DNA of 16,998 bases from Fidelibacterota bacterium (GTDB lineage Bacteria; Fidelibacterota; Marinisomatia; Marinisomatales; JABMOV01). This document shows positions 505-16,998 of the stretch, piece after piece. The number at the start of each line of letters is the position of its first letter. Positions within the stretch are counted from its first letter, which is position 1. A program made the position numbers and the translations under genes. Under the pieces are notes generated by a model that saw only the letters and a program-made list of their open reading frames with translations, did no database searches and had not been told where the DNA came from. Where the stretch lies: the NCBI GenBank assembly GCA_046861395.1, contig JBHHUC010000046.1, forward strand, positions 1 through 16,998, read 5' to 3'.

Positions 505-1062
505 CTAATGCCGAATTGTCTCTTTTATCGTTTCATAGCTAAAAGGAAATGAGACGCTTGCTCCTGTATCAAATTTCCATTTTTTATTCTCTAATATTCT
601 TATATCTAATTCTCCCCAACCTATAAAACCGCTAAATAATCCTATTTTAGGATAAAACGGTTTATTCTTATACCGCCATATCCCGGCTGTCACCCCTGAA
701 AATGGGAATGCATGCGGAAATAATCCAATTTTTCCATATTGACCTTCTAAATACCAATAGTTTCTACGACCATCATTGTTTTCAGGGACAGTTAACGCAT
801 TAATTCCAATTGTAATATTATAAAATTGAATATCACTAAAATCAATTCCATACTCACTTTCCTCATTTCCATTAAGTATACCAATGCGCGAGGTTCCAAC
901 GCTCAATTTTGCCTCCAATGTGAAACCCGATCCCCATTCATAGCCAAATCTCAATCCGGGACTTAAATAAATTGGAAAATCGTAAGATTGAGCTATTGAG
1001 AATAGTAGTAATTGGATAAATATTACTTTACGATATATTACGTTCCTTTCTTGTACACCCAA
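505..1062 (-). CDS. Cassette-borne hypothetical secreted or outer-membrane beta-rich protein
   Basis: 185-codon AT-rich ORF. Signal-peptide-like stretch YRKVIFIQLLLFSIAQS, followed by Gly/aromatic-rich alternating strands (SPGLRFGYEWG, FYNITIGIN, WYLEGQYG, FDTGASVSF). Start codon uncertain (TTG at 1062 or ATA at 1038). Confidence 0.72.
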   Translation of the reverse strand: MGVQERNVIYRKVIFIQLLLFSIAQSYDFPIYLSPGLRFGYEWGSGFTLEAKLSVGTSRIGILNGNEESEYGIDFSDIQFYNITIGINALTVPENNDGRRNYWYLEGQYGKIGLFPHAFPFSGVTAGIWRYKNKPFYPKIGLFSGFIGWGELDIRILENKKWKFDTGASVSFPFSYETIKETIRH

Positions 1063-1442: not shown

Positions 1443-2183
1443 ATGCAATTGCCTGTCTATTTTGTTTCCGATGTACATTTGATGCTGAATGATTCTCCCA
1501 AAGCACAGCAGCGTCAGCAACGGTTTTTCTCCTTCCTGGATATAGTGAAGCAATCCGGCGGGACGTTGTTCATCGTCGGCGATCTCTTTGATTTCTATTT
1601 CGAATATCCCCATACGATTCCGAAAATGTATTTCGACCTCTATCTGGCCATCGAATCGTTGCGCAAGAAGGATATCGAAGTTCATTATGTCCTGGGCAAT
1701 CACGATTACTGGGTGCAATCCTTCATCCGGGACCGTCTCATGACGAAAGTCTATCCCCAGGCGGCGGATATCGTTATCCGGGGGAAGTCGTTCCACATTA
1801 CGCACGGTGACGGAATTCTGTCCTGGGACCGGGGTTACCGGATATTGAAAGCGGTAATTCGCAATCCCTTTTTCATCTGGTGCTATCGCTGGCTCCATCC
1901 CACCCTGGGTTACGGCTTTGCCCACTGGGTATCGCGCACCGGTTACCATAATGGACACAGCGCCGAATACAACCGGCGGGTTCAGGATGAATTGTCCGCC
2001 TATGCCAGCCAGCAGATCGCACGGGGCAGTCAATTCGTGATCTGCGGTCATTATCACCAAAGCGTCGATCATGAACTTTCAGGCGGAAAACTCATTGTCA
2101 TGGGGGATTGGATTTCCGCCCCGAGTTATGCCTATTTTGACGGGAATGATTTAACCCTGATACCGGTGGATAACCATGAATAA
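1443..2183 (+). CDS. lpxH: UDP-2,3-diacylglucosamine diphosphatase (calcineurin-like metallophosphoesterase)
   Basis: Motifs SDVHL, GDLFD, GNHD, HGD and CGHYH; 246 aa; LPS gene neighbourhood. Confidence 0.88.
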   Translation: MQLPVYFVSDVHLMLNDSPKAQQRQQRFFSFLDIVKQSGGTLFIVGDLFDFYFEYPHTIPKMYFDLYLAIESLRKKDIEVHYVLGNHDYWVQSFIRDRLMTKVYPQAADIVIRGKSFHITHGDGILSWDRGYRILKAVIRNPFFIWCYRWLHPTLGYGFAHWVSRTGYHNGHSAEYNRRVQDELSAYASQQIARGSQFVICGHYHQSVDHELSGGKLIVMGDWISAPSYAYFDGNDLTLIPVDNHE

Positions 2184-3303
2184 ACGGCTTATTCTTCTTG
2201 TCCTGCTTGCCCTGTTACTGACCGGGTGTTCCAAGCTGCGGCAGTTGAACATATTCGGGAAAAACAAATCCGGTTACGGCCAGGTCCAGCCCAGTGATAT
2301 TGAGAAATTGAGAATGGCCTACCGGGACGGTCGGATTCAGGCCCTGGAAGAATTGATTGCCATTTACGAGGATTCGGAACAGCCCATGGATATTCGGCTG
2401 GCGGCCGGGACGGCACTGGCGGAAACCCATCATCCCACGGCTCTCAATGCCCTGGCCAACGTGGTCGCCGAAGCTGACGCTCTCGACCTGACCTTCATGA
2501 TCGCCTCCATCGAATTGCTGGCCAAATTCCGGGATAATCCCCGGGCCCCGGAAGCCATGGTTCAATCCATGCACAAAATTGAAGAAAAAGCCAATGAATT
2601 GCACCTGGTGCTGGTCAAGAATCTGAATAAGGTCCGGACCAAGGACCAGATTTTAACCCTCCTGGATCTATATGAAGTGTCCAAGGCCAACCTGGCCCGG
2701 ACAGAAAAACTTCTGGCCGAGACCCTGGGCGCCATCGGGGATGATGATGCCATTCCCGTCCTCATGAAAATCGCCCAGGACCCGGATATCAATATCGGCG
2801 TACGCAATCGTGCCGTGGAAATCCTGGGGAAAAAGGAAGCCACGGAAGTGGTCACTGCCTTTACCGAAATGCTGGGTAATCCGGAAACCAATGAAGAAGT
2901 CCGCGATTTCGCCCTGAACACCATGGCCGGCGTCAAAGAAGAAAACTTGATTCTCACATTGCTGGACACTTACAATACCGGAAAAAAGGAGTATTTTTCA
3001 CTCCTGTCCACATTGATGGATGCCCTGAGCGATTTTGACGACCCGGCGGTGATCAAAACCATCATCGAAATCGCCAAAAGTGATGATTATCCCCTGGCGA
3101 TCCGTAAAAAGGCCATCCGTAAACTGGGGGATTTCGGGGATGCCAGCACGATTCCTCCCGTTCTCACTGTCCTGGACCGGGCTGAGAATTATGACCTTTA
3201 TCCTGACATTATGAACCTGATCATTACGACCGGCACTGCCGATGATTACCTGGAAGACATCCGGCGCCGCTCCTTTCATGCCCATCGGGTGGCTTCGCCA
3301 TGA
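2176..3303 (+). CDS. HEAT-repeat (PBS-lyase-like) lipoprotein
   Basis: Signal peptide MNKRLILLVLLALLLTG-C with lipobox LTGC. Repeated HEAT units: IRLAAGTALAE, LAETLGAIGDDDAIPVL, VRNRAVEILG, VRDFALNTMA, IRKKAIRKLGDFGD. Overlaps the lpxH stop by 8 nt. Confidence 0.85.
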   Translation: MNKRLILLVLLALLLTGCSKLRQLNIFGKNKSGYGQVQPSDIEKLRMAYRDGRIQALEELIAIYEDSEQPMDIRLAAGTALAETHHPTALNALANVVAEADALDLTFMIASIELLAKFRDNPRAPEAMVQSMHKIEEKANELHLVLVKNLNKVRTKDQILTLLDLYEVSKANLARTEKLLAETLGAIGDDDAIPVLMKIAQDPDINIGVRNRAVEILGKKEATEVVTAFTEMLGNPETNEEVRDFALNTMAGVKEENLILTLLDTYNTGKKEYFSLLSTLMDALSDFDDPAVIKTIIEIAKSDDYPLAIRKKAIRKLGDFGDASTIPPVLTVLDRAENYDLYPDIMNLIITTGTADDYLEDIRRRSFHAHRVASP

Positions 3304-4034
3304 TGATGGTCCTCATCCTGCTCTTATTCACCTTGCTAGCGGCCCAGGAGGCTCCTACCGACAGTCTCCCCCCGCTAAAACCCGATGCGGATACCACCGC
3401 CACCTTACCGGCCGGGGGACCATTTTTCGAATATCGCTATGAACTGGATGAATTACGCGATGAAATCGATTCCCTGAAGCAGGTCCTGAAAGTATACGAA
3501 AAACGGAAATCCATTCCCCAGATTGATCCGGCCCTGCTTGAATTCATCCGGACCCCGGAACTGAAACATCGCATCACGCTGCAGAACGGAACGGTCATTA
3601 TCGGTGAAATTCTGCTCGATGAAGGAGAACGTCTGATTGTCCGGACACCGTTGGGCGAACTAGTCATCGACCGGAAGCATGTGGCCAAAATCGAAGACAA
3701 TGAAGCACTGTCACCGAAAATCGAATGGATCCGGGAACCAACCGTCAAAGCTTATCCGAATAAAGAAATCATTCGCGGCGTGGTGCGGAATACGGGACAG
3801 ATACGGGCCGACTTCGTGCGCGTCATCGCCCATCTATGGACCCAGACCACGGAGGAAGTGGCCCGGGATTCGGCTTTTGTCGCCGGCAAACAGGTAACCT
3901 ATAAATCAGGCGTTATTTCCGACACGGCCATTGAGCCGGGCCAGACGGTGAATGTCGTCATCACGGTAGCGGTTCCCGATGATGAACGCGTGGCCTACCG
4001 CACCTATGATTTCCGCTGGATCGAAGCGCGGTAA
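3300..4034 (+). CDS. Hypothetical secreted protein: coiled coil, small beta domain and Ig-like (FxLYD-like) C-terminal domain
   Basis: Hydrophobic signal ending LLAA-QE. Heptad segment LDELRDEIDSLKQVL. Beta motif ITLQNGTVIIGEIL...IVRTPLGELVIDR. C-terminal IRGVVRNTG...IEPGQT. ATGA overlap with the upstream gene. Confidence 0.8.
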   Translation: MMMVLILLLFTLLAAQEAPTDSLPPLKPDADTTATLPAGGPFFEYRYELDELRDEIDSLKQVLKVYEKRKSIPQIDPALLEFIRTPELKHRITLQNGTVIIGEILLDEGERLIVRTPLGELVIDRKHVAKIEDNEALSPKIEWIREPTVKAYPNKEIIRGVVRNTGQIRADFVRVIAHLWTQTTEEVARDSAFVAGKQVTYKSGVISDTAIEPGQTVNVVITVAVPDDERVAYRTYDFRWIEAR

Positions 4035-4049: not shown

Positions 4050-4973
<924 letters not shown>

Positions 4974-5004
4974 CTAAAAATTGATGTTCCGGAAGGCCCG
5001 GTGA

Positions 5005-6348
5005 TCAGAGAATGTAACGGCTGAGATCCTGGTCTTCGGCAATATCCTCCAGTTTGGCTTCCACAATATCTTTCGTAATGATGATCGTCTGTCCTTTCTG
5101 GTTGGACAAATCAAACATATATTCGTCCAGCAGGGTCGTCATGATGGTATGCAGGCGCCGGGCGCCGATATTTTCCGTGCGATTATTGACTTCCGTGGCA
5201 AAACGGGCAATGGAACGAATGGCGGCCTTATCGAATTCCAGGTCCACGCCTTCTGCTTTCAATAATGCCCTGTACTGCTTGATTAGGGCTGATTTGGGAT
5301 GGGTTAATATTTTTACAAAATCATTGGTCGACAATTTATCCATCTCCACCCGGATGGGGAAACGACCCTGCAGTTCGGGTATCATATCAGAGGGCGTGGA
5401 CACATGAAAGGCTCCGGCCGATATGAAGAGGATGTGATCAGTTTTGACCATGCCGTATTTGGTAGGAACCGTGCTCCCTTCGATAATGGGCAGGAGATCA
5501 CGCTGGACGCCTTCCCGGCTCACGTCGGGTCCGGACCCGGCGCCGTTGCCCACGATTTTATCAATTTCATCCAGAAAGACAATACCGTTATTCTCCACCG
5601 CTTCCTGGGCTTGGCGTACCACTTCATCCTGATCAATCAAATGGTAGGCTTCCTGTTCAATGAGCACTTCCCGCGCTTCCGAAACGGGCATTTTCCGTTT
5701 TTTCTTCGATCCGGGCATGACATTGGATAACATATCCTTGATATTCATCCCGATATCTTCCAGTCCCATGGGACCGAAAATCTGCATGGCCGGCATATGG
5801 TCATCCGTGACTTCCACTTCAACGAAATGGTCCTCCAGTTCACCGCTTTCCAGCTTTTTCCGCATTCGATCCCGGTTGCGTTTGTGACGTTCTTCCACTT
5901 CCGCTGGTTGTTTGGATCCAGCCGGCAGAGTCGTGGCGGGAAAAACCAGGTCCAGCAGACGCATTTCCGCCAATTCCTCCGCCCGGTCCAGGACGTCGGC
6001 TTCCATCCGGCTCCGGACCTGGGAAACCGCAATGTCCATCAAATCCCTAATGATGGATTCCACATCGCGGCCCACGTAACCCACTTCGGTAAATTTACTG
6101 GCTTCGATCTTAATGAATGGTGCATTGGCCAGATTGGCCAGACGGCGCGATATTTCCGTTTTGCCGACACCGGTGGGGCCGATCAGGACGATATTGTTGG
6201 GGACAATTTCATTCCGGATGGATTCGGGCACCTGCTGCCGACGCCAGCGATTCCGCAGCGCAATGGCCACCGCCCGCTTGGCTTTGGCCTGACCAACAAT
6301 GTATTTATCCAGTTCCCGGACAATCTGACGGGGCGTCATGTTTTTCAT
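5005..6348 (-). CDS. hslU: ATP-dependent protease ATPase subunit HslU
   Basis: MTPRQIVRELDKYIVGQ, Walker A GPTGVGKT, GYVG pore loop, DEIDK, C-terminal DLSRYIL. Start moved to the ATG at 6348 (TAATG coupling with hslV, GGAGG upstream). Confidence 0.97.
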   Translation of the reverse strand: MKNMTPRQIVRELDKYIVGQAKAKRAVAIALRNRWRRQQVPESIRNEIVPNNIVLIGPTGVGKTEISRRLANLANAPFIKIEASKFTEVGYVGRDVESIIRDLMDIAVSQVRSRMEADVLDRAEELAEMRLLDLVFPATTLPAGSKQPAEVEERHKRNRDRMRKKLESGELEDHFVEVEVTDDHMPAMQIFGPMGLEDIGMNIKDMLSNVMPGSKKKRKMPVSEAREVLIEQEAYHLIDQDEVVRQAQEAVENNGIVFLDEIDKIVGNGAGSGPDVSREGVQRDLLPIIEGSTVPTKYGMVKTDHILFISAGAFHVSTPSDMIPELQGRFPIRVEMDKLSTNDFVKILTHPKSALIKQYRALLKAEGVDLEFDKAAIRSIARFATEVNNRTENIGARRLHTIMTTLLDEYMFDLSNQKGQTIIITKDIVEAKLEDIAEDQDLSRYIL

Positions 6349-6893
6349 TAATCCTCCAGGACCGTAATACTGTCGTTGGTGTAAATACACAACTGGGAAG
6401 CAATCTTCAATGATTTCCTTACCACATCGGCGGCGGACAGGGATTTATTTTCCAGAAAGGCGGAAGCCGCCGCCTGGGCATAACCGCCACCGGAACCGAT
6501 GGCTATCACCGGTCCATCCGGTTCGATGACATTGCCGTCCCCGGAAACAATATAGCTTCCCTGTCGGTTCATTAGGGCCAGCAATGCTTCCAAATGTCGG
6601 AGATACTTATCGGTTCGCCATTCCTTGGCCAACTCTACGACGGCCCGTTTCAAATCACCGTTATACTCATCCAGTTTTTGTTCAAATTTCTCAAACAAAT
6701 TCAAGGCATCGGCGGCAGCGCCGGCAAAACCGCCCAACACTTTGCCCTGGTCGGTATCGAAATCCCGGACTTTTACCGCTTTCTGTTTCATGGCCATATC
6801 GCCGAACGTAACCTGGCCGTCGCCCCCCAGGGCGATCTGTCGGCCACGGCGTACGCCTAAAATAGTGGTTGAACGGATTTTAACTCCTTTCAT
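6348..6893 (-). CDS. hslV: ATP-dependent protease peptidase subunit HslV
   Basis: Short leader then S-TTILGVR (catalytic Thr), GDGQVT, GFAG, LAKEWRTDKYLRHLEA, GSGG and CIYTN. Confidence 0.97.
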   Translation of the reverse strand: MKGVKIRSTTILGVRRGRQIALGGDGQVTFGDMAMKQKAVKVRDFDTDQGKVLGGFAGAAADALNLFEKFEQKLDEYNGDLKRAVVELAKEWRTDKYLRHLEALLALMNRQGSYIVSGDGNVIEPDGPVIAIGSGGGYAQAAASAFLENKSLSAADVVRKSLKIASQLCIYTNDSITVLED

Positions 6894-6911
6894 GACTGCA
6901 TCTGACTCCTT

Positions 6912-7760
6912 CTATTGACTGTTGAGTTGTTGGAACAGTTGCATGTCCCGAGGCAGGACCAGAGTCGTTTTCTCATCGATGATGGATTTATACACTTCCA
7001 GACTGCGTGTGAATTCATAGAAATCGGGATCGCTGGAATAGGCTTTGGCATAGATATCAGCGGCGATGGCTTCCCCTTCACCACGGATTTCTTCGGCCTG
7101 CCGGTAGGCGTCGGCCAGAAGGATGGTTTTATCCTTATCTGTTTCGGCCATGATTTTCTTGGATTCTTCCGACCCCTCGGAGCGGAATCGATTGGCCTGA
7201 CGTTTCCGTTCGGCTTCCATGCGGGCGTAAATCGATTTTTCATTTTCCTGGGGCAGATCTACGCGGCGGATACGGACATCGACAATTTCAATCCCGTAAT
7301 CCTGGGTGGCAATATTGGATGCTTCCGTGACCTTTTCCATGATTAGTTCGCGGTTTTCCGTAATGATTTCCACCATATTATGCGTTCCCAGCTCCTGTCG
7401 CAGTTTGGAATAGATAATATCATCCAACCGGGTCACGGCATTGGGAATAGCCTGGACGGTCTGGATGAAGAGCAGTGGATTGACAATACGCCAGCGAACA
7501 TAATTATCAACAATCAGCGTTTTTTTATCATTGCTGAGTATCTCTTCCGGTGGTACATCGTATTCCAGCAACCGGTTATCAATAACGGTTGCGGTCTGGA
7601 AGGGAGCCGGTAATTTCATATGCAGGCCTGGATCTTTGATCGTCCGGACCGGTTTTCCGAATTGCAGGATAACGACCTGTTCCGTGATATCGACGACAAA
7701 GACGGTTGACCAGACAACCAGGGCCGCCAGAATGGCGATGATGATAATGATTTGTTTCAT
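6912..7760 (-). CDS. hflC: FtsH protease modulator HflC (SPFH domain)
   Basis: N-terminal transmembrane segment, QFGKP..PGLH, DKKTLIVDNYVRWRI, RMEAER, DPDFYEFTRSLE. Confidence 0.95.
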   Translation of the reverse strand: MKQIIIIIAILAALVVWSTVFVVDITEQVVILQFGKPVRTIKDPGLHMKLPAPFQTATVIDNRLLEYDVPPEEILSNDKKTLIVDNYVRWRIVNPLLFIQTVQAIPNAVTRLDDIIYSKLRQELGTHNMVEIITENRELIMEKVTEASNIATQDYGIEIVDVRIRRVDLPQENEKSIYARMEAERKRQANRFRSEGSEESKKIMAETDKDKTILLADAYRQAEEIRGEGEAIAADIYAKAYSSDPDFYEFTRSLEVYKSIIDEKTTLVLPRDMQLFQQLNSQ

Positions 7761-8734
7761 TGGACACCTCCTTGCCCGGCAGGATTAAGATTCAGCAAAT
7801 TCAAGAGATTGCCATTCTTATCATCGGGAATGATTACTTTATTGATTCCGGGTAAAATATCTTCCATGGCTTCCAGGTAGAGTCGCTTCCGGGTAATATC
7901 CTTGGCTTGTTTATATTCCGCCAGGATGGCCTTGAACTTGGCCACATCACCCTGGGCGCGTTTGATTCGGGATTCGCGGTACCCTTCCGCTTCCCGGACC
8001 CGGGCCTGAGCCTCACCCCGGGCCTTGGGAATGATATCGTTGCGATACCCTTCCGCCTGATTGATCATTCGGTTTTTATCTTCCTTGGCCGAGGCAACAT
8101 CCTTGAACGCAGCCACCACTGGTTTGGGCGGTGCTACGGCCTGTAATTGGGCTGCGACGATGAGGATTCCCGAATTATATTTTTCCAAGATGCTCTGGAG
8201 TAAATCCTTGGTTTCTTCCTGAATTACCAACTTTCCATCCGTCAGCGCTTCATCTATGGAATGACGGCCGATGACGGTCCTCAGGGATGCTTCGGCGGCT
8301 TCCCGTACGGTCAACTCCGGTTTTACGAATTTATACAGGTAATTCACCGGCTCCTTGATCTTGTATTGTATGATCAATTCCGCATCCACAATATTTTCAT
8401 CACCGGTAAGCATCAGGCTTTCCTGCTCAACCTTTTTATACTGGTTATTACGGACCGATCGGAATCCGATTTCAATCCGTTTGACTTCCATGACCTTCGG
8501 TATGGCCACCGATTCAATGGGGTAGGGCACATGAAACCGTAACCCGGATGGTGCAATTCGGCTTACATCACCGAAGGTTTTCACCACGCCAACCTCATCC
8601 GGTCCCACGGTATAAAATCCGGTAGCCAGCCAGAGACCCAATACAATCAATATTATGGGGAGAACCCCTAATGTGAAGAGACGATTGGGAATTTTAATTT
8701 CCGTGTCTCCTATAACAACTTTTCGATATGACAT
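7757..8734 (-). CDS. hflK: FtsH protease modulator HflK (SPFH domain)
   Basis: GFYTVGPDEVGVV, PYPIE, MLTGDENIV, IPKARGEA, TRKRLYLEAME. Start moved to the ATG at 8734 (SD AAAGGAA), which removes the overlap with rpoN. Confidence 0.95.
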   Translation of the reverse strand: MSYRKVVIGDTEIKIPNRLFTLGVLPIILIVLGLWLATGFYTVGPDEVGVVKTFGDVSRIAPSGLRFHVPYPIESVAIPKVMEVKRIEIGFRSVRNNQYKKVEQESLMLTGDENIVDAELIIQYKIKEPVNYLYKFVKPELTVREAAEASLRTVIGRHSIDEALTDGKLVIQEETKDLLQSILEKYNSGILIVAAQLQAVAPPKPVVAAFKDVASAKEDKNRMINQAEGYRNDIIPKARGEAQARVREAEGYRESRIKRAQGDVAKFKAILAEYKQAKDITRKRLYLEAMEDILPGINKVIIPDDKNGNLLNLLNLNPAGQGGVQ

Positions 8735-8747
8735 AATCGATTCCTTT

Positions 8748-10115
8748 CTACTTGGTTTGAATGCTCCGGCGCAACCGGGCAACCGGGATCTGTAATTGTT
8801 CGCGGTATTTCGCGATGGTTCGCCGGGCAATCGGATACCCCTTTTCTTTCAGAGCCTGTGCTAATTTTTCATCGTTCAAGGGCTTGGACTTGTCTTCATG
8901 GTCAATGATGTCCTTCAGGGCCAGTTTTATTTCATTGGTACTTACCATACTCCCGTCATCGCGGGCCATGCCTTCGGTAAAAAATGATTTCAATTCAAAA
9001 ACACCATAGATGGTATCCACGTACTTGCCGCGGGTGGAACGGCTGATGGTGGAAATATCCATGCCAATATCATCTGCAATATCCTGGAGCTTCATGGGAT
9101 TCAGATGAGACAAGTTCCCCCTGAAAAATTCTTTTTGCCGGTTGATGATGGACCGGGTGACGGCTTTCATTGTTTCGCGCCGTTGTTCAATGGCCTGAAT
9201 GAACCAGTGTCCCGAATCAATTTTCTTGCGTAAATAGTTTCTGGCATCAGAATTCAACCCGGCCTTGGCATCCATCATGGACAGATAATCATTATTAATT
9301 CTCAGCTCCGGCAATCCGCCGTCATTAACCTGGATGATGAATTCTCCGTTCTGTTCCCGTACAATTACATCGGGAATGACCGTTTCATCCTTGGCCAAAG
9401 ATGTATTTTCCCCGGGCTGGGGATTCAATTGCGAAATGATGCGGATGGCGTCCGATAATTCTTCCGATGTTATACCGCATTTGGCTTGCACCGCTTCGAA
9501 CCGGTGGTTGGCGAAATCATCGAAACAATCACGAATGATACGATAGGCCACCGAATCCGGATCATGATCCAATTGTACCAACAAACATTCCCGTAGATCT
9601 CTCGCTGCTACGCCCACCGGATCAAAATGTTGCACTTCTTTTAAAATATACAGAATCTCATCTTCTGTCTTACCCACGCGATCCGCGATGAGAACCATTT
9701 CCGTGCCCAGATAGCCGCGATCATCAAGATTCCAAAGAATCTCTTCCGCTATCCGCCGTTCATCTTCATTGAAATTCGTATCATCCAGCTGTTTCACCAG
9801 TGTTTCGATAAAATCTTCCCGCGCTACCAGGGGTGCTTCATAATCATTATTGTCGGACTTGCTATATATATTGGGCGGTTCATATTCATCACCATCATCA
9901 GGAATATCGACGTCGGTGTCCTTTTCGTTGCTGTCTGTGTCCGGGGATAATTCCGGGGTTTCCGCTGAATCGGCCGGTTCCAGAACCGGATTGGTTTCCA
10001 GTTCATCCAGAATCCGCTGTTCCAGGTTAATCGTATTTAATTGCAGTAAGGTGGCCTGCAGGATTTGCTGCGGGGCCAGGATTTGCTTTTGGGCTAATAC
10101 CTGTTCCAGTCTCAT
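8748..10115 (-). CDS. rpoN: RNA polymerase sigma-54 factor
   Basis: Gln/Leu-rich region I, ELETNPVLE, DPVGVAARDLRECL, HTH DISTISR, RpoN box ARRTIAKYRE. Confidence 0.97.
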   Translation of the reverse strand: MRLEQVLAQKQILAPQQILQATLLQLNTINLEQRILDELETNPVLEPADSAETPELSPDTDSNEKDTDVDIPDDGDEYEPPNIYSKSDNNDYEAPLVAREDFIETLVKQLDDTNFNEDERRIAEEILWNLDDRGYLGTEMVLIADRVGKTEDEILYILKEVQHFDPVGVAARDLRECLLVQLDHDPDSVAYRIIRDCFDDFANHRFEAVQAKCGITSEELSDAIRIISQLNPQPGENTSLAKDETVIPDVIVREQNGEFIIQVNDGGLPELRINNDYLSMMDAKAGLNSDARNYLRKKIDSGHWFIQAIEQRRETMKAVTRSIINRQKEFFRGNLSHLNPMKLQDIADDIGMDISTISRSTRGKYVDTIYGVFELKSFFTEGMARDDGSMVSTNEIKLALKDIIDHEDKSKPLNDEKLAQALKEKGYPIARRTIAKYREQLQIPVARLRRSIQTK

Positions 10116-10118
10116 GGC

Positions 10119-10859
10119 TCAGTCCAGACGGAATCGTTCCCCCAGATAAAGACGCCGAGCTTCCGGATCGGAGGCCAGGGATTCTGACGTGCCGGAAAGA
10201 AGAATCCGGCCATCGAACAATAGATAGGAGCGATCAGTAATGGACAATGTTTCCCGGACGTTATGATCCGTAATCAATACACCGATCTGCCGGTCCTTCA
10301 GGGAGGAGACAATGGATTGAATATCCTCCACAGCAATGGGATCCACCCCGGCAAACGGTTCATCCAGTAAAATAAAGTCCGGGTCCATGGCCAGACAGCG
10401 ACAGATTTCCACCCGACGTCTTTCACCCCCTGACAGATTGTTGCCTTTGTTTTTCCGTATATGTTGGATGGAGAGATCCTCCAGTAATTGTTCGATTTTC
10501 TCCCATTGTTCCTTTGCTGTCAGGTTTGTCATTTCCAGAACCAGTTTCAGATTCTCCTCCACTGTCAATTTTCCGAAAATGGATGGTTCCTGGGACAGGT
10601 AACCGATACCTTTCCGCGCCCGGCGATACATGGCATCACGGGAAATATCCTCATCGTCCAGATAAATGTGTCCCCGGGTCGGCCGGATCATCCCGGTAAT
10701 CATATAGAATGTTGTTGTCTTCCCCGCTCCGTTGGGTCCCAGCAACCCCACGATTTCTCCCTTTTCCACTTTCAGGTTCACATCACGAACGACCATTCGT
10801 TTGCCATATTTTTTATGCAGACCGGCAGCACGCAGGATGGAATGACTAATTTGTTTCAC
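10119..10859 (-). CDS. lptB: LPS export ABC transporter ATP-binding protein
   Basis: GPNGAGKTTTFYM, LSGGERRRVEI, LLDEPFAGVDP, ITDHNVRETL and YLGERF; GTG start. Confidence 0.97.
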   Translation of the reverse strand: MKQISHSILRAAGLHKKYGKRMVVRDVNLKVEKGEIVGLLGPNGAGKTTTFYMITGMIRPTRGHIYLDDEDISRDAMYRRARKGIGYLSQEPSIFGKLTVEENLKLVLEMTNLTAKEQWEKIEQLLEDLSIQHIRKNKGNNLSGGERRRVEICRCLAMDPDFILLDEPFAGVDPIAVEDIQSIVSSLKDRQIGVLITDHNVRETLSITDRSYLLFDGRILLSGTSESLASDPEARRLYLGERFRLD

Positions 10860-11397
10860 GGGTCGTTACTCCTGAGGGTTTCAGTATTGTCCAGGACTCC
10901 ATTTCCAGATCGGATTCAAATCCCACACCATACAGGGTGTCGTGTTGTGTGGTGGTTATCATGACAGAGTCATCGGTAAAAATCAGACCGGAATTATGAT
11001 CCAGGGACAGGGTGTCACTGAAGAGCGTGATGCCGCTGTCAGATATCACGGTTACTTGTCCGAAGGCTTGCATGAAATTTGATGTTTCCTCCACTTCGGC
11101 CGATTCCGATAATAATAGGGATGTGTGTTTTTCTCTTTCATCAAAAAAATCGACATGAACATTCCCATCCAGTTGGGCATACTGACGGTCGTTGTATTTC
11201 TGGAGATGATCGGCCTTAACCACGGCCCGGATTTTCCCCTGCTCTGTAAAAGTTAGTGTCACTACCCAACTCTCCATATCCGGCTTCCCTTTCCGACTTT
11301 CTCCGGTCAAGGGTGATTCCTGGTGTGTACATGCCGTCCATATCAGGAATAAGGACAAGAATCGGACCACCCGTCCTCGTCTGCCAATCTTCATCAT
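10846..11397 (-). CDS. lptC: LPS export periplasmic protein LptC (lipoprotein-type signal)
   Basis: Position between kdsC and lptB. Beta-jellyroll motifs VHVDFFD, AFGQVTVIS, LFSDTL, IFTDDSVMI and LYGVGFESD. Hydrophobic stretch ends WTA-C. Confidence 0.88.
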   Translation of the reverse strand: MMKIGRRGRVVRFLSLFLIWTACTHQESPLTGESRKGKPDMESWVVTLTFTEQGKIRAVVKADHLQKYNDRQYAQLDGNVHVDFFDEREKHTSLLLSESAEVEETSNFMQAFGQVTVISDSGITLFSDTLSLDHNSGLIFTDDSVMITTTQHDTLYGVGFESDLEMESWTILKPSGVTTRETN

Positions 11398-11951
11398 GTA
11401 TTCGTGTGCTGATCCAATTGTTGCCGTAATGTTTCCAGGACAGTTTCATAGCGGCCCTGGCCCTTCAATATCCAATCTACCGCTTCCCGGAAGGCACCGG
11501 AACCACCACATTTTTCCGTAACATGGACGGCCGCTTCCTGAACCAAAGGATAGGCGTTCTGTACCGAAATGGGAACGCCGCTCCGGGCCATGACCGCCAG
11601 GTCGATGATCCCGTCACCAATGTATGCCACTTCGTCATCATGGAGATGGTATTTTTCTAGAAGGGCCTGGTAGGGAAGCATTTTATTTAGTGTGCCGTTA
11701 TAGACATCTTCGATCTGCAACTCCCTGGCGCGGGCCTCGGTGGCTGCACTGTAACGTCCAGAAATCAAGGCAATATTCAGACCGGCGGCGCGGGCTATGG
11801 CCACACCGGCACCGTCCTCCACGGAAAAGCGTTTGAATTCTACGCCGTCACCCCCCTTAAATATTGAGCCATCCGTCAGGACACCATCAACGTCCGATAT
11901 AATCATTTTAATCTTGACCAGGCGGGCGCGCAATTCAGGTGGATATTCCAC
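11394..11951 (-). CDS. kdsC: KDO-8-phosphate phosphatase (HAD family)
   Basis: DVDGVLTDG, F.VEDG, ISGR, YIGDGIID and GGSGAFRE; GTG start. Confidence 0.92.
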   Translation of the reverse strand: MEYPPELRARLVKIKMIISDVDGVLTDGSIFKGGDGVEFKRFSVEDGAGVAIARAAGLNIALISGRYSAATEARARELQIEDVYNGTLNKMLPYQALLEKYHLHDDEVAYIGDGIIDLAVMARSGVPISVQNAYPLVQEAAVHVTEKCGGSGAFREAVDWILKGQGRYETVLETLRQQLDQHTNT

Positions 11952-12756
11952 GAATGGCCTCCCGCACTTTCATCACATCACGCAACAAGGATTCCAGTTT
12001 ATCCAGCGGCCATTGGGTTGCTGCATCGGACAGGGCTTGTTCCGGGTAATTATGGATTTCCAGGAATAAACCGTCACAACCGGCTGCAACCGCCGCACGC
12101 ACCATGGTGGGAATGTGAGACCTCTCTCCTCCGGTAGTGGAGGATCCCTGTCCGGGGACCTGGGCACTATGCGTCCCGTCAAAGATGACGGGACAACCCG
12201 TGGTCTGCATCATGGGGATGGCTCTGACATCAAACACCAGACTGTCATAGCCGAAAGTTGTGCCGCGTTCCGTAAGTAGAATGATTTCCGTCCCAGCGGT
12301 TTCCAGTTTTTTCACTACCGGCCCCATCTTGCCGGGACTGACGAACTGCCCCCGTTTAACATTCACCGGTTTACCCGTTTTACCCGCCGCCAGGAGTAAG
12401 TCGGTTTGCCGGCATAAGAAGGCCGGGATCTGGATGATATCTACCACCTCGGCGGTCGCTTCAGCCTGGTGAGGAAGATGAATATCCGTGAGAACAGGAA
12501 CACCGATTTCCCGGTGGATACGGGCCAGGATATTCAATCCCTGCTTCAAACCGGGACCGCGATATGATTCCACTGATGTCCGGTTCGCCTTGTCGAAGGA
12601 TGATTTAAAGATGAATGGTAAACCCACCGCGGCCGCAATATCACGGATGGCGGCCGCCATCATGAGGGCGTGATCTTCATTTTCAATCACACAGGGTCCG
12701 GCGATGAGAGGAAGACTGTCTCCCCCGAAAATGACGGGATCAAATTGTTCAGGCAT
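11935..12756 (-). CDS. kdsA: KDO-8-phosphate synthase (metal-dependent type)
   Basis: IAGPCVIE (Cys metal ligand), FDKANRTS, QIPAFLCRQTDLL, ERG, DGTHS, FLEIH and SDA. Confidence 0.97.
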   Translation of the reverse strand: MPEQFDPVIFGGDSLPLIAGPCVIENEDHALMMAAAIRDIAAAVGLPFIFKSSFDKANRTSVESYRGPGLKQGLNILARIHREIGVPVLTDIHLPHQAEATAEVVDIIQIPAFLCRQTDLLLAAGKTGKPVNVKRGQFVSPGKMGPVVKKLETAGTEIILLTERGTTFGYDSLVFDVRAIPMMQTTGCPVIFDGTHSAQVPGQGSSTTGGERSHIPTMVRAAVAAGCDGLFLEIHNYPEQALSDAATQWPLDKLESLLRDVMKVREAIRGIST

Positions 12757-13334: not shown

Positions 13335-14639
13335 ATGTCCAATCCCAGATTCCTGTTTGATCAGCAATTACCGCCCCTGGCAGACCGCGTCCGGCCCAAA
13401 ACCATCGCAGATTTCGTCGGTCAATCCCACCTGCTGGGACAGGGAAAAATATTATCCCGCATCGCCCAAACAAAATCTCTTTTTTCATTAATTCTTTGGG
13501 GGCCGCCAGGATCGGGAAAAACATCTCTGGCCCGCATTTTATCACAGACTACGGATGCAACGATGGTCGAGCTGTCGGCCGTCAGTAGCGGTGTGCGCGA
13601 CCTGAGAAAAGTCATAGAACAGGGCAGAACCGGGCGGGAAATGGGAAAACGTACCATTTTGTTCATTGACGAAATTCATCGGTTCAGCAAAGCTCAGCAG
13701 GATGCCCTCCTCCATGCCGTCGAAGAAGGGGATATTACTCTCATTGGCGCAACGACGGAAAATCCATCCTTTGAAATTATTAACCCCCTTCTCTCCCGCT
13801 GCCGGGTACTGGTGCTAAGAGCCCTTAGCACTACCCAACTCAACCGGATACTGGACCACGCCTTTACTGTGGATATTAAACTTTCCGCAGGACGAATTTC
13901 ACTTCCCGATCCAGTCCGGCAGCACCTTCTATCCGCCAGTGGTGGTGATGCCCGGAAAATGCTGAATACCCTGGATATCTGTCTGCATCTGGTTGGCGCT
14001 GACGGTGTTATTTCACTTGACATTCTGAATGAAGCACTCCAGCAGAATCCTCTGCTCTATGACAAGAGCGGAGATTATCATTACGATGCCATCAGTGCCT
14101 TCATTAAAGCGGTGCGCGGCAGCGATCCCGATGCCGCCGTTTATTGGTTGGTGGTAATGCTGGAAGGCGGTGAAAAGCCCGAATTCATTGCCCGGCGCCT
14201 GGTCATTCAGGCGGCGGAAGATGTGGGTAACGCGGATCCCAACGCCTTACCGCTGGCCTCGGCCGGTTTCCAGGCCGTCCATCAGATCGGTATGCCGGAA
14301 AGTGCAATTATTTTGTCCCAGGTGACGACCTATCTGGCGGCAGCACCAAAATCCAATGCGGCCTATATGGCCTTGAAAGCGGCTCAAAAAGTCGTCACTG
14401 CAAATAAAACGCCGACCGTCCCGGTACACCTGCGCAATGCTCCCACCGACCTGATGAAACAGCAGGGGTTCGGAAAGGATTATGTCTATCCCCATGATCA
14501 TCCAGATCATTTTATCCGGGCCAATTATTTTCCGGATGGAGTGACCGGGGGCTATTACATGCCGTCACGGATGGGATATGAAGCCTTTATTCGCAAACGC
14601 CTAGCGGCTTTATGGCAGGATCGTTACTCTGAAGAATAA
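13335..14639 (+). CDS. rarA: Replication-associated recombination protein A (MgsA/RarA AAA+ ATPase)
   Basis: PLADRVRP, GPPGSGKT, DEIHRFSKAQQD, GATTENPSF, SAFIKAVRGSDPDAA, EDVGNADP, HLRNAPT and YPHD. Confidence 0.96.
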   Translation: MSNPRFLFDQQLPPLADRVRPKTIADFVGQSHLLGQGKILSRIAQTKSLFSLILWGPPGSGKTSLARILSQTTDATMVELSAVSSGVRDLRKVIEQGRTGREMGKRTILFIDEIHRFSKAQQDALLHAVEEGDITLIGATTENPSFEIINPLLSRCRVLVLRALSTTQLNRILDHAFTVDIKLSAGRISLPDPVRQHLLSASGGDARKMLNTLDICLHLVGADGVISLDILNEALQQNPLLYDKSGDYHYDAISAFIKAVRGSDPDAAVYWLVVMLEGGEKPEFIARRLVIQAAEDVGNADPNALPLASAGFQAVHQIGMPESAIILSQVTTYLAAAPKSNAAYMALKAAQKVVTANKTPTVPVHLRNAPTDLMKQQGFGKDYVYPHDHPDHFIRANYFPDGVTGGYYMPSRMGYEAFIRKRLAALWQDRYSEE

Positions 14640-16998
14640 TTTTCCTTTCCTCATGGTTCTTCTGATCCCGGTCTGCAGTCTGTTCGCCCAGGATAAGCGG
14701 TTACATTTACAGCAGGCCGATGTGTTAAGAAACATAACCGTTGCTGGAAAACCGTTGCAGATCCTCACCGGGAATGTCACGTTTACAAAAGAAACCATGA
14801 CACTGACCTGCGACCGGGCCCGTTGGTCCGATCGGGACCATGAAGGGACCCTGGCGGGAAATGTGATCGTCACTAAAGATGATCGTACCTTGGTCTGCGA
14901 TTCCCTTTTTTACCAGTCCGATCAGGATATTATCAAAACTTTCGGGAATACTCATATCTGGGATTCCGATTATGATCTAGTCTCCGATTCCCTGCTCTTT
15001 TATTCCAGTCTTGACAGCGGCGTTGCCCTGGGACATGCCCACCTGCTGCAGAAAGAACAGGATATCCGGGCCATGAAAATGATCTATGTCAAACATCCTG
15101 GTGAAGATGCTGTCTCCTACACGGCCCGGGACAGTGTGACCATCATCGAAACGGAATCGGGCCGGAAAGCCCTCTGTGGGCAAGCCGTTTATGACCGTAC
15201 CCGGGAAACGACTACACTCTATGATCAGCCGGAAATGCGCGATGGGGAACGGACCCTGACGGGTTCTGTAATTCAGTTGGTTTACCGGGATGAAGTGTTG
15301 ACCTATTTGTATATTCCCGGTGAGGCCCAGGCCTCGTCGAAAAGCAGCGGTTACCGGAATATAACCGGTGAGGATTCCCTAACCGCCAAGGTACCGGTGC
15401 GAATGACAGATGACATGTCCGGTCGTATCCTGAAAGGGTTTTTCACAGCCGGCGATTTGGATTCAATCCGTCTGGAAGGTATGGCGCAAACTTTGTATCA
15501 TATTTTTGAGGATTCCGTGTATTCGGGCCGGAACTTGGCCTCCGGAGATACGATCAGCATGGGATTTGAAAACCAGGAACTGGTTCGCATTCACATTACC
15601 GGGGGCGCCCGGGGGCTTTATACACCCGACACCACTGATTCCGAATTGTCGGAGCCCATCCAATATGAGGCGGAAGAAATTGTTTACGAAATCAAGGCCG
15701 GAACCAGTGAATTAATCCGTCATGCCATCATTAACCAGGATGTTACCCGACTCTCCGCCGGATTCATCAGCATCAACTGGGACAATAATTTGCTCTATGC
15801 CTGGCCCAGATTGGCCCGTGACAGTCTGACCACACCGGAAACGCCTACCATCCTGGAACGGGGAAAGGATCCCATGTCCGGTGATATGATGGTCTATAAC
15901 CTGAAAACACGAAAGGGCCGGGTTACGGAAGGACGGACCAAAGCAGCGGACGGATATTATCAGGGGCGGGAAATCCGGAATGACGGAACCAAGGTCTTTT
16001 ATATACGCAACAGTATCTATACCACCTGTGACCTGGATGATCCGCATTTTGACTTCACTGGGACACGCATGAAAATGATTCATAACGACAAGGTCATATC
16101 CCGACCACTGATTTTCGAAATCCACCATATTCCCCTGTTTGGTTTACCGTTTATCATACTGCCGCACCAGGGCGGACGCCGCCATTCCGGCTGGATCATG
16201 CCGACCTACGGAGACAATAAAAACCGGGGACAATACATCGACGGAGCCGGCTATTACTGGGCCGTGAATGATTATTGGGATATTACCACAAAATTCGGGT
16301 TTGCCGATAAACAGGGCTTCCGATTGCGGAATAATATCCGATATAAGAAACGATACCGTTTCAATGGCAATCTGCATCTGGAGGGGAAATGGCTACTCAC
16401 GGCGGGCCAGAATGATATTGTAACGCTGAAAAAGAATATGCAGCGGGATATTGTTTTCAAATGGAAACACTCCCATACCCTGCGTCGTAATCAGACCTTC
16501 CGGGCCAATGTGAGCTACTATTCCAATGGTGCCTATAATTACCAGACTGGAATTGACCAACAGGAACGATTGAGCCAGAAGGCCGTTTCCAATATCACCT
16601 ACAGCAAACGATGGAAAAAATCGGGAAATTCGTTTTCCCTGAACCTGTCATCCAATCAGGATTTGATGGTCGACCAGAAAATCGATCCCCTGAACCTCTT
16701 TTACGTAGCCCCGACCCGGGCCGGAACGCAATTAACCATCAATTCGATGGCTTTACCCAATGCAACGTTCCGCCTGGGATCTAAGAATCTGTTGAAACCG
16801 CTGAAATTCCTGGGTCGGTGGACTGAAAATATCACCACGAGTTATTCCACTTCACTCAAGCGAACCGTGAAAACGTATTATAAATCTAAAGGCTTGTTGC
16901 AACCGGACAGTTCCATCGTCTATGACTGGATTCGTTCGGCCAACGGCGACGGAAAGCCATTTTCCGATGAATCGGCCGGGATTACACATACCTATGCC
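14629..16998 (+). CDS. lptD: LPS assembly protein LptD with a long N-terminal LptA/OstA-like extension (partial; runs off the right edge)
   Basis: Translated by hand: frame +1 has no stop from 14629 (CTG) or 14653 (ATG) to 16998. Signal peptide ends CSLFA-QD. LptD motifs: PIQYEAEEIVY, LSAGFISINW, YNLKTRKG, YTTCDLDDPHF, LPFIILP, RHSGWIMPTYG, GYYWAVNDYWD and RYKKRYRFNG. Missing from the ORF track because it has no stop in the window. Confidence 0.9.
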   Translation, partial: MKNNFPFLMVLLIPVCSLFAQDKRLHLQQADVLRNITVAGKPLQILTGNVTFTKETMTLTCDRARWSDRDHEGTLAGNVIVTKDDRTLVCDSLFYQSDQDIIKTFGNTHIWDSDYDLVSDSLLFYSSLDSGVALGHAHLLQKEQDIRAMKMIYVKHPGEDAVSYTARDSVTIIETESGRKALCGQAVYDRTRETTTLYDQPEMRDGERTLTGSVIQLVYRDEVLTYLYIPGEAQASSKSSGYRNITGEDSLTAKVPVRMTDDMSGRILKGFFTAGDLDSIRLEGMAQTLYHIFEDSVYSGRNLASGDTISMGFENQELVRIHITGGARGLYTPDTTDSELSEPIQYEAEEIVYEIKAGTSELIRHAIINQDVTRLSAGFISINWDNNLLYAWPRLARDSLTTPETPTILERGKDPMSGDMMVYNLKTRKGRVTEGRTKAADGYYQGREIRNDGTKVFYIRNSIYTTCDLDDPHFDFTGTRMKMIHNDKVISRPLIFEIHHIPLFGLPFIILPHQGGRRHSGWIMPTYGDNKNRGQYIDGAGYYWAVNDYWDITTKFGFADKQGFRLRNNIRYKKRYRFNGNLHLEGKWLLTAGQNDIVTLKKNMQRDIVFKWKHSHTLRRNQTFRANVSYYSNGAYNYQTGIDQQERLSQKAVSNITYSKRWKKSGNSFSLNLSSNQDLMVDQKIDPLNLFYVAPTRAGTQLTINSMALPNATFRLGSKNLLKPLKFLGRWTENITTSYSTSLKRTVKTYYKSKGLLQPDSSIVYDWIRSANGDGKPFSDESAGITHTYA

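Follow-up and report, generated by a model that had tools for sequence, protein, structure and literature searches.

An LptA-type unit and LptD encoded in one frame in a Fidelibacterota genome and in related phyla

The genes lptC, lptA and lptB stand in this order in Escherichia coli, where LptA is a free component of the bridge that carries lipopolysaccharide (LPS). How many LptA copies make up one bridge is given as unknown, and the number may be adjustable (passages of PMC10863985); when either end of the bridge is faulty, quality control removes free LptA by degradation (passages of PMC8727689). In Bacteroidota, parts of an electron cryomicroscopy (cryo-EM) study (10.64898/2026.10.03.756453) describe LptA seated on LptD, the two forming one uninterrupted beta-taco. 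Here we analysed a window of 16,998 nucleotides, which is the entire contig JBHHUC010000046.1 (C97 below) of a Fidelibacterota genome assembly (GCA_046861395.1; 136 contigs, 2.37 Mb, 94% complete). A gene at 14629..16998 (+) of this window encodes an LptA-type unit and LptD in one frame, and the product is likely an outer-membrane LPS translocon that carries its own periplasmic slide. A preliminary description of the sequence had proposed such a fusion in one polypeptide, and the proposal is borne out by the split of profile matches along the protein, by the single frame and by the lack of another LptA match in the genome.

The fused gene and its product

The frame is free of stops from CTG 14629 (790 codons) or ATG 14653 (782 codons) to the contig end, which cuts the gene and leaves its 5' two thirds in the window. 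The remainder was mapped to C17:35875-37059 (-) by way of a same-family relative. This C-terminal piece of 395 residues starts at the end of C17 and corresponds to residues 799-1203 of the relative, and the window piece corresponds to residues 18-798, directly before it; thus the whole fused protein would be about 1,180 amino acids (aa) long. C97 and C17 have zero exact overlap. An N-terminal signal peptide is predicted at 14629..14688 from the sequence, from alignment to the signal region of free LptA and from relatives, with an uncertain start codon and a mature start at Q21 (14689). The CTG would give a 20-residue signal peptide with a basic start and the ATG one of only 12 residues. Because a methionine at the corresponding start is also absent in three same-family relatives, a non-ATG start is favoured. 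The likely CTG start overlaps, at 14629-14639, the stop of a gene for an MgsA/RarA-family ATPase (13335-14639).

Database relatives are mostly 1,130-1,250 aa long and cover 88-100% of the query (120 of 240 matches listed). Among these 120, relatives carry PF03968 and PF19838, and most also carry PF13100. The domain combination is already held in databases, where it is filed as LptD without remark. Relatives with names, among the matches listed and in the Atlas, belong to Candidatus Marinimicrobia/Neomarinimicrobiota, Fidelibacterota or the FCB group.

The LptA unit (14689..15627, +; 313 aa) is a long beta-jellyroll of the FCB type that scores over the cut-offs of PF03968 (40.4 bits) and PF13100 (37.8 bits), and is about twice as long as E. 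coli LptA (159 aa chain in 2r19). We built profiles from 20 free LptA proteins and 19 free LptD proteins of KSB1; residues 21-333 scored 170.8 bits with the former and -0.6 bits with the latter. By hhalign, free LptA aligns with the fused family over 309 columns, from first strand to last, with a probability of 100 (E 2.3e-49) and one deletion of about 30 residues. The N-terminal part also matches free proteins of 387-545 aa named LptA or OstA-like, the solved structures closest to it in sequence are LptA chains, and a structure search of the Atlas gave a template modelling (TM) score of 0.86 to models of free Bacteroidota OstA/LptA. LptA-specific start and end motifs are present. The match to TIGR03002 (31 bits) falls below its cut-off of 71.7, in a model built for the short, 142-position LptA type. 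By homology the unit is thus of LptA type and is predicted to work like LptA; it is not a canonical separate LptA protein. The earlier suggestion that this part is a complete long FCB-type LptA, closer to LptA than to the N-domain of LptD and alignable to stand-alone LptA encoded between lptC and lptB in relatives, agrees with the near end-to-end alignment, with the two profile scores and with the gene order in KSB1 (21/21 loci).

The unit measures 245-389 residues in 36 Marinisomatota (the name used here for the phylum of the window genome in our samples) and 300-333 residues in ten Zixibacteria. The shortest is found in genomes of about 1 Mb (family f3), at 245 aa in the one measured (locus L036 of genome G067); the fused frames of these genomes are 1,083-1,157 aa long, and the unit spans 350-389 aa in other classes. 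The short database proteins P0122-P0126, considered as free LptA, either extend into LptD or break off on short contigs, and are read as fragments.

Between the two units lies an acidic joint (15628..15657, +) that, from profile alignment, joint lengths and hydropathy, appears to be a remnant of the N-terminal leader of LptD. It aligns with positions 43-52 of the free LptD profile and, on this alignment, is a stump of LptD's own leader rather than new sequence, so that the fusion would have removed the LptA tail and the LptD signal peptide. The preliminary description had placed this linker, DTTDSELSEP, correctly. The joint is 13 residues long in all 36 Marinisomatota measured, 12-21 residues in Zixibacteria and highly variable in Eisenbacteria. 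In six Eisenbacteria-like loci (L046, L047, L049, L065, L068 and L118) the joint is a low-complexity stretch of about 65-85 residues that would bulge from the bridge as a loop.

The N-terminal jellyroll domain of LptD (15658..16179, +) follows the free LptD profile from position 53 onwards, and the beta-barrel begins at 16180..16998 (+), as indicated by PF19838 (LptD_2, 166 bits) and by a model of the relative P0005. Residues 344-790 scored 320.8 bits against free LptD, and the two contig pieces 329 and 343 bits. NF002997 was matched at 64.6 bits, far below its cut-off of 683. With the piece on C17 counted, profile, Pfam and structure matches support the earlier view that the second part is a complete LptD. 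The motifs quoted in that description all occur in one frame, with GGARGLYTP at 15601-15627, IQYEAEEIVY from 15658, YTTCD at 16018-16032 and RHSGWIMP from 16180. The cysteine of YTTCD (16027-16029) and that of LHCW are invariant in 30 fused proteins and both are present in this genome; they probably link the N-domain with the barrel end by a disulfide.

An AlphaFold2 model of the near-complete relative P0005 (85 rows) is all-beta, with a predicted local distance difference test (pLDDT) score of 82.8, and its top Foldseek matches are all LptD structures (E 8.6e-24). Residues 21-469 of the window protein, which span the LptA unit and the joint and reach 125 residues into the LptD N-domain, were modelled from 40 rows with a pLDDT of 89.6 (about 80 at the joint) and a predicted TM score (pTM) of 0.83, which fits one rigid body made up of the LptA part and the beginning of the LptD N-domain. 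LptC modelled with the N-terminal 220 residues gave a score of 0.42, against 0.01 for the best of three controls; runs agree in at least 72% of contacts and partner pLDDT is at least 81. The mark for pair scores is passed by 116/157 solved and 2/215 mismatched pairs, and at 0.60 or below only 18 solved pairs are found together with both mismatches. The model is a weak indication that the fused protein docks on LptC, since the score lies in the range that holds both mismatches and LptC-LptA is a textbook pair.

Distribution of the fusion and the vacant lptA position

Matches were identified in 197/201 Marinisomatota genomes, and 150/150 of the best matches listed cross the joint in one frame (141 weaker matches lie outside the listing). 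Second matches in four Marinisomatota genomes examined are the same frame as the first. With the free-LptA profile, the best 150 matches in 101 genomes of this phylum (51 weaker ones lie outside the listing) all belong either to the long fused frame or to frames that a contig end truncates. In Zixibacteria, 60/61 cross the joint and one is split over contig ends. Both units share one frame in 56/60 Eisenbacteria, the remainder being one frameshift at the joint, one contig break, one partial match and one genome with no match. In five of these 56 a single stop falls within the match span; of the five, the two inspected hold both units in one frame. One further phylum is fused in 7/9, with the other two split over contig ends. 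A search of long proteins with the free-LptA profile added seven fused proteins, some named Eisenbacteria; among loci fetched with these, 76/80 have both units in one frame, three are cut by contig ends and one, from KSB1, is unfused. KSB1 is fused in 0/61 genomes, with free LptA in 59 and no LptA match in two. Far from being a peculiarity of this genome, the fusion is the usual condition in at least three phyla. Related genomes in these counts are kin and not independent, and Calditrichota, Latescibacterota, Gemmatimonadota, Fibrobacterota, Cloacimonadota, WOR-3, Delongbacteria and others lie, by name, outside the sampling.

Several apparent splits in fused phyla were checked: the frames reach contig ends (G117, G103, G227), lie near enough to a contig start to run off it (G131, G279) or run off the contigs (G364, G400, G405). 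In L235 (G371:C8), at about 1900-2100, the LptA and LptD halves are in different frames, with the shift inside a GC-rich joint; the most likely cause is a sequencing error or else a defective copy. Eisenbacteria-like fused LptD also occurs in seven loci titled Saccharimonadales, Acidobacteriota, Bacteroidota or Verrucomicrobiia (L054, L075, L077, L083, L086, L108 and L113). These titles are probably mislabels, because the genome of L083 was drawn in the sample of the Eisenbacteria phylum.

Four kilobases upstream of the fused gene and on the opposite strand is a run of kdsA-kdsC-lptC-lptB-rpoN, in which there is no lptA between lptC and lptB. It is headed by kdsA and kdsC (11394..12756, -). 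Next come lptC (10846..11397, -; TIGR04409, 61.4 bits, over cut-off; PF06835), directly followed by lptB, which overlaps the lptC stop (10119..10859, -; TIGR04406, 363 bits), and rpoN (8748..10115, -), after lptB as in the canonical locus. Pfam and three of our own profiles found no other LptA in this 94% complete genome, where LptC was the sole weak match, and tblastn of the genome gave a second match only at chance level (C112, E 0.11-0.41), which the profiles did not recover. LptE is present (PF04390, 43.9 bits, at C13), as are LpxC and two separate LptF/G genes on other contigs; Pfam found no inner-membrane permease domain within the fused protein.

In KSB1, the order lptC-lptA-lptB-rpoN occurs in 21/21 loci, which were chosen by their LptA match (21 of 59 matches). 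By comparison, lptC stands directly before lptB in 15/15 Marinisomatota, from 15 families, in 10/10 Eisenbacteria or other fused genomes and in 1/5 Zixibacteria loci. Unrelated frames occupy the place upstream of lptB where lptC would stand in the Zixibacteria loci L181, L186, L190 and L198. The signal-like N-terminus of LptC ends in a cysteine that is invariant in 32/32 LptC from Marinisomatota, KSB1, Zixibacteria and Eisenbacteria. Thus LptC here, with its lipobox-like Cys23, is likely a lipoprotein rather than helix-anchored, which is also the prediction for Borrelia LptC.

Origin, mechanism and alternative explanations

The order lptC-lptA-lptB is common to KSB1, Borrelia and E. coli, suggesting that free LptA is ancestral. 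From this state, lptA would have left its operon and joined lptD, losing the LptA tail and the LptD signal peptide. FastTree, run on 235 LptD sequences, gathers the fused proteins of Marinisomatota into a single clade (support 0.996, 55 rows); those of Zixibacteria and Eisenbacteria stand elsewhere in the tree, separated from it by unfused lineages. The two fused groups also stay apart by IQ-TREE on 44 LptD rows, where a starred branch joins Marinisomatota with unfused sequences. Unfused tree neighbours include KSB1 (P0205) and Delongbacteria (the cluster of P0233). A single clade of all fused LptD was rejected by the approximately unbiased (AU) test (p 5.6e-5; LG+G4) on 26 rows, a test run after the trees had been inspected. 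In a tree of the LptA part (177 columns), Zixibacteria and Eisenbacteria form a starred clade. We consider at least two fusions within the FCB group likely; there may instead have been one fusion, with the lptD part replaced later. An unfused group of LptD of 760-815 aa (P0235, P0290 and seven more) adjoins four fused proteins (P0247-P0249 and P0277) near the Eisenbacteria clade, and may mark a further fusion or a fission.

For the mechanism, the models suggest that the LptA unit and the LptD N-domain would fold as one continuous beta-taco in which the joint of 10-13 residues replaces the non-covalent LptA-LptD contact. By analogy with the E. coli pathway, LptB2FG would push LPS into LptC, whose C-terminal edge would pair with the first strand of the LptA unit at a conserved RL-L--AD motif. 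The lipid would pass from LptC straight into the fused chain, slide along the groove and exit via the lateral gate of the barrel, with LptE as plug. With no free LptA to stack, bridge length would be fixed by the gene at one LptA per LptD, about two E. coli LptA long, and the bridge could be opened only at LptC. Each E. coli LptA accounts for about 40 Å (passages of PMC10863985), so the 313-residue unit would add about 80 Å. We tentatively propose that FCB phyla may have welded LptA to LptD at least twice independently and so gained a gene-encoded ruler. Its length, which is 245 residues in a streamlined genome of 1 Mb and reaches 389 in another class, would set or follow periplasm width, and the bridge could be made or broken only where it touches lipid-anchored LptC.

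That an assembly or gene-calling artefact fused two neighbouring genes might be suspected from the fragmentation of the source assembly, with its 136 contigs. The fused frame is identical in letters, gaps and joint in contigs of four runs from one hydrothermal-vent sample, which is possibly the window's own source and not independent of the assembly; together with the stop-free passage across the joint in all 150 best listed relatives, this upholds the continuous frame described earlier. Given also the same domain set in the 120 listed database proteins, an artefact can hardly be entertained and was rejected on conservation across the phylum and in the run contigs. The N-terminal part might instead be a duplicated LptD N-domain, with lptA lost separately, as PF03968 and the fold are common to LptA and that domain. 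The opposed profile scores and the retained LptA start and end motifs make this very improbable, and it was rejected at the profile level.

Two further alternatives accept the fusion of the genes and differ in what becomes of the product. A precursor could be cut at the joint to give ordinary separate LptA and LptD: a polar joint loop would be accessible to a periplasmic protease, and in Eisenbacteria the joint can reach 50-85 residues of low complexity. However, the best 11-residue hydropathy at the joint averages 0.67 (maximum 1.71) in the 36 Marinisomatota, whereas their true signal regions average 2.67 (minimum 1.98), so the joint is not a signal-peptidase site; an internal signal peptide was rejected for want of a hydrophobic core. 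The identical joint length in all 36 is expected of a structural connection and AlphaFold2 models a single unit, leaving the cut precursor improbable. Somewhat less remote, and still unlikely, is a real fusion in a bridge that is not of fixed length because another jellyroll (a divergent LptA or stacked LptC) extends it, or in a bridge that also exports surface lipoproteins. LptC shares the jellyroll fold and is itself a weak match to LptA profiles. The Bacteroidota translocon does export surface lipoproteins, and its subunit LptP is said to be conserved over seven further FCB phyla (parts of 10.64898/2026.10.03.756453). Against variable length, neither Pfam nor our three profiles identified a further jellyroll gene in the genome, and lipoprotein export would add to the covalent, gene-set bridge rather than replace it.

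Several observations weigh against the covalent bridge of twofold origin proposed here. With a pTM of 0.51 for the whole model of P0005, it is uncertain how the long arm sits relative to the barrel, and a divergent short LptA may lie below search thresholds or in unassembled DNA. In four of the five Zixibacteria loci neither lptC nor lptA is within 1.5 kb upstream of lptB, so the argument from the empty position does not apply there. The IQ-TREE phylogenies of LptD leave Marinisomatota unresolved as one clade, with unfused sequences among its rows without strong support, and in the LptA-part tree one origin of all fused proteins was not rejected (p 0.35).

Genomic context and comparison with known systems

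Elsewhere in the window, a row of genes at 1443-4034 (+) begins with a metallophosphoesterase (1443-2183), identified by Pfam, which we take to be LpxH-like; NCBIfam did not confirm LpxH at the threshold used. It is followed by a HEAT-repeat protein with a weak lipoprotein-site match (2176-3303) and a DUF3426-like secreted protein (3300-4034). Genes for hflK-hflC-hslV-hslU and ornithine carbamoyltransferase (4050-8830, -) continue the rpoN run on the same strand, and a 185-aa protein with a signal-like start and zero Pfam matches is encoded at 505-1062 (-).

Members of the phylum occur widely in the ocean and the subsurface, and a cultured one, Fidelibacter multiformis IA91, has inner and outer membranes and LPS by cryo-EM (passages of PMC11652737). 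In phyla without free LptA, LPS export is apparently possible without a separate, exchangeable LptA. The annotation of such genomes, which seem to lack lptA and in which the protein is filed simply as LptD, can be corrected. The fused genes represent a version of the Lpt machinery that is characteristic of several phyla and far more general than a single genome. Their product would be a natural, fixed 1:1 construct for cryo-EM and transport kinetics, and lineage-specific unit lengths offer a direct test of bridge length against periplasm width.

For these phyla, an LptA-LptD fusion was not found described in a literature search that mostly excludes subscription papers and that covered parts of 10.64898/2026.10.02.756314, PMC11447908, PMC8407342 and 10.1101/2024.02.19.580942, among others. 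The distribution table and supplement of 10.64898/2026.10.03.756453 may bear on novelty. In parts of that study, the long LptA of the Bacteroidota LPS translocon (F. johnsoniae, B. thetaiotaomicron) co-purifies with LptD. These proteins share the PF13100/PF03968 type of LptA and the PF19838 type of LptD with the fused protein. Their LptA is a separate gene product of 56 strands and about 500 aa, whereas here it is covalently joined and 313 aa long. The separate KSB1 proteins, LptA (about 360-400 aa) and LptD, together cover the length of the fused protein and adjoin at model position ~395, but they are the products of two genes at two loci in 59/61 genomes.

More distant parallels are found outside these phyla. 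The Thermotoga maritima 'pABC permease' G4FGC1 combines domains resembling LptA and LptD in one naturally occurring gene; according to passages of PMC10160955 it adds an LptF/G permease and belongs to an LPS-free organism of an unrelated phylum, whereas here LptF/G are separate and LPS genes are present. Borrelia has a large LptD (BB0838), one LptA per modelled bridge and a lipoprotein-type LptC. Unlike the fused phyla, it keeps free LptA in lptCAB and is without LPS (parts of 10.1101/2022.12.21.521298). The E. coli Lpt bridge (LptB2FG-LptC-LptA-LptDE; LptA 2R19/2R1A, LptD 4Q35 and 9KN3) has the same domain families, the same order C-A-D and the same LptD fold, and its locus is likewise kdsC-lptC-(lptA)-lptB-rpoN. 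In contrast to E. coli, LptA here is not free, its unit is about twice as long and is predicted to occur once per bridge, and LptC carries a lipobox-like cysteine.

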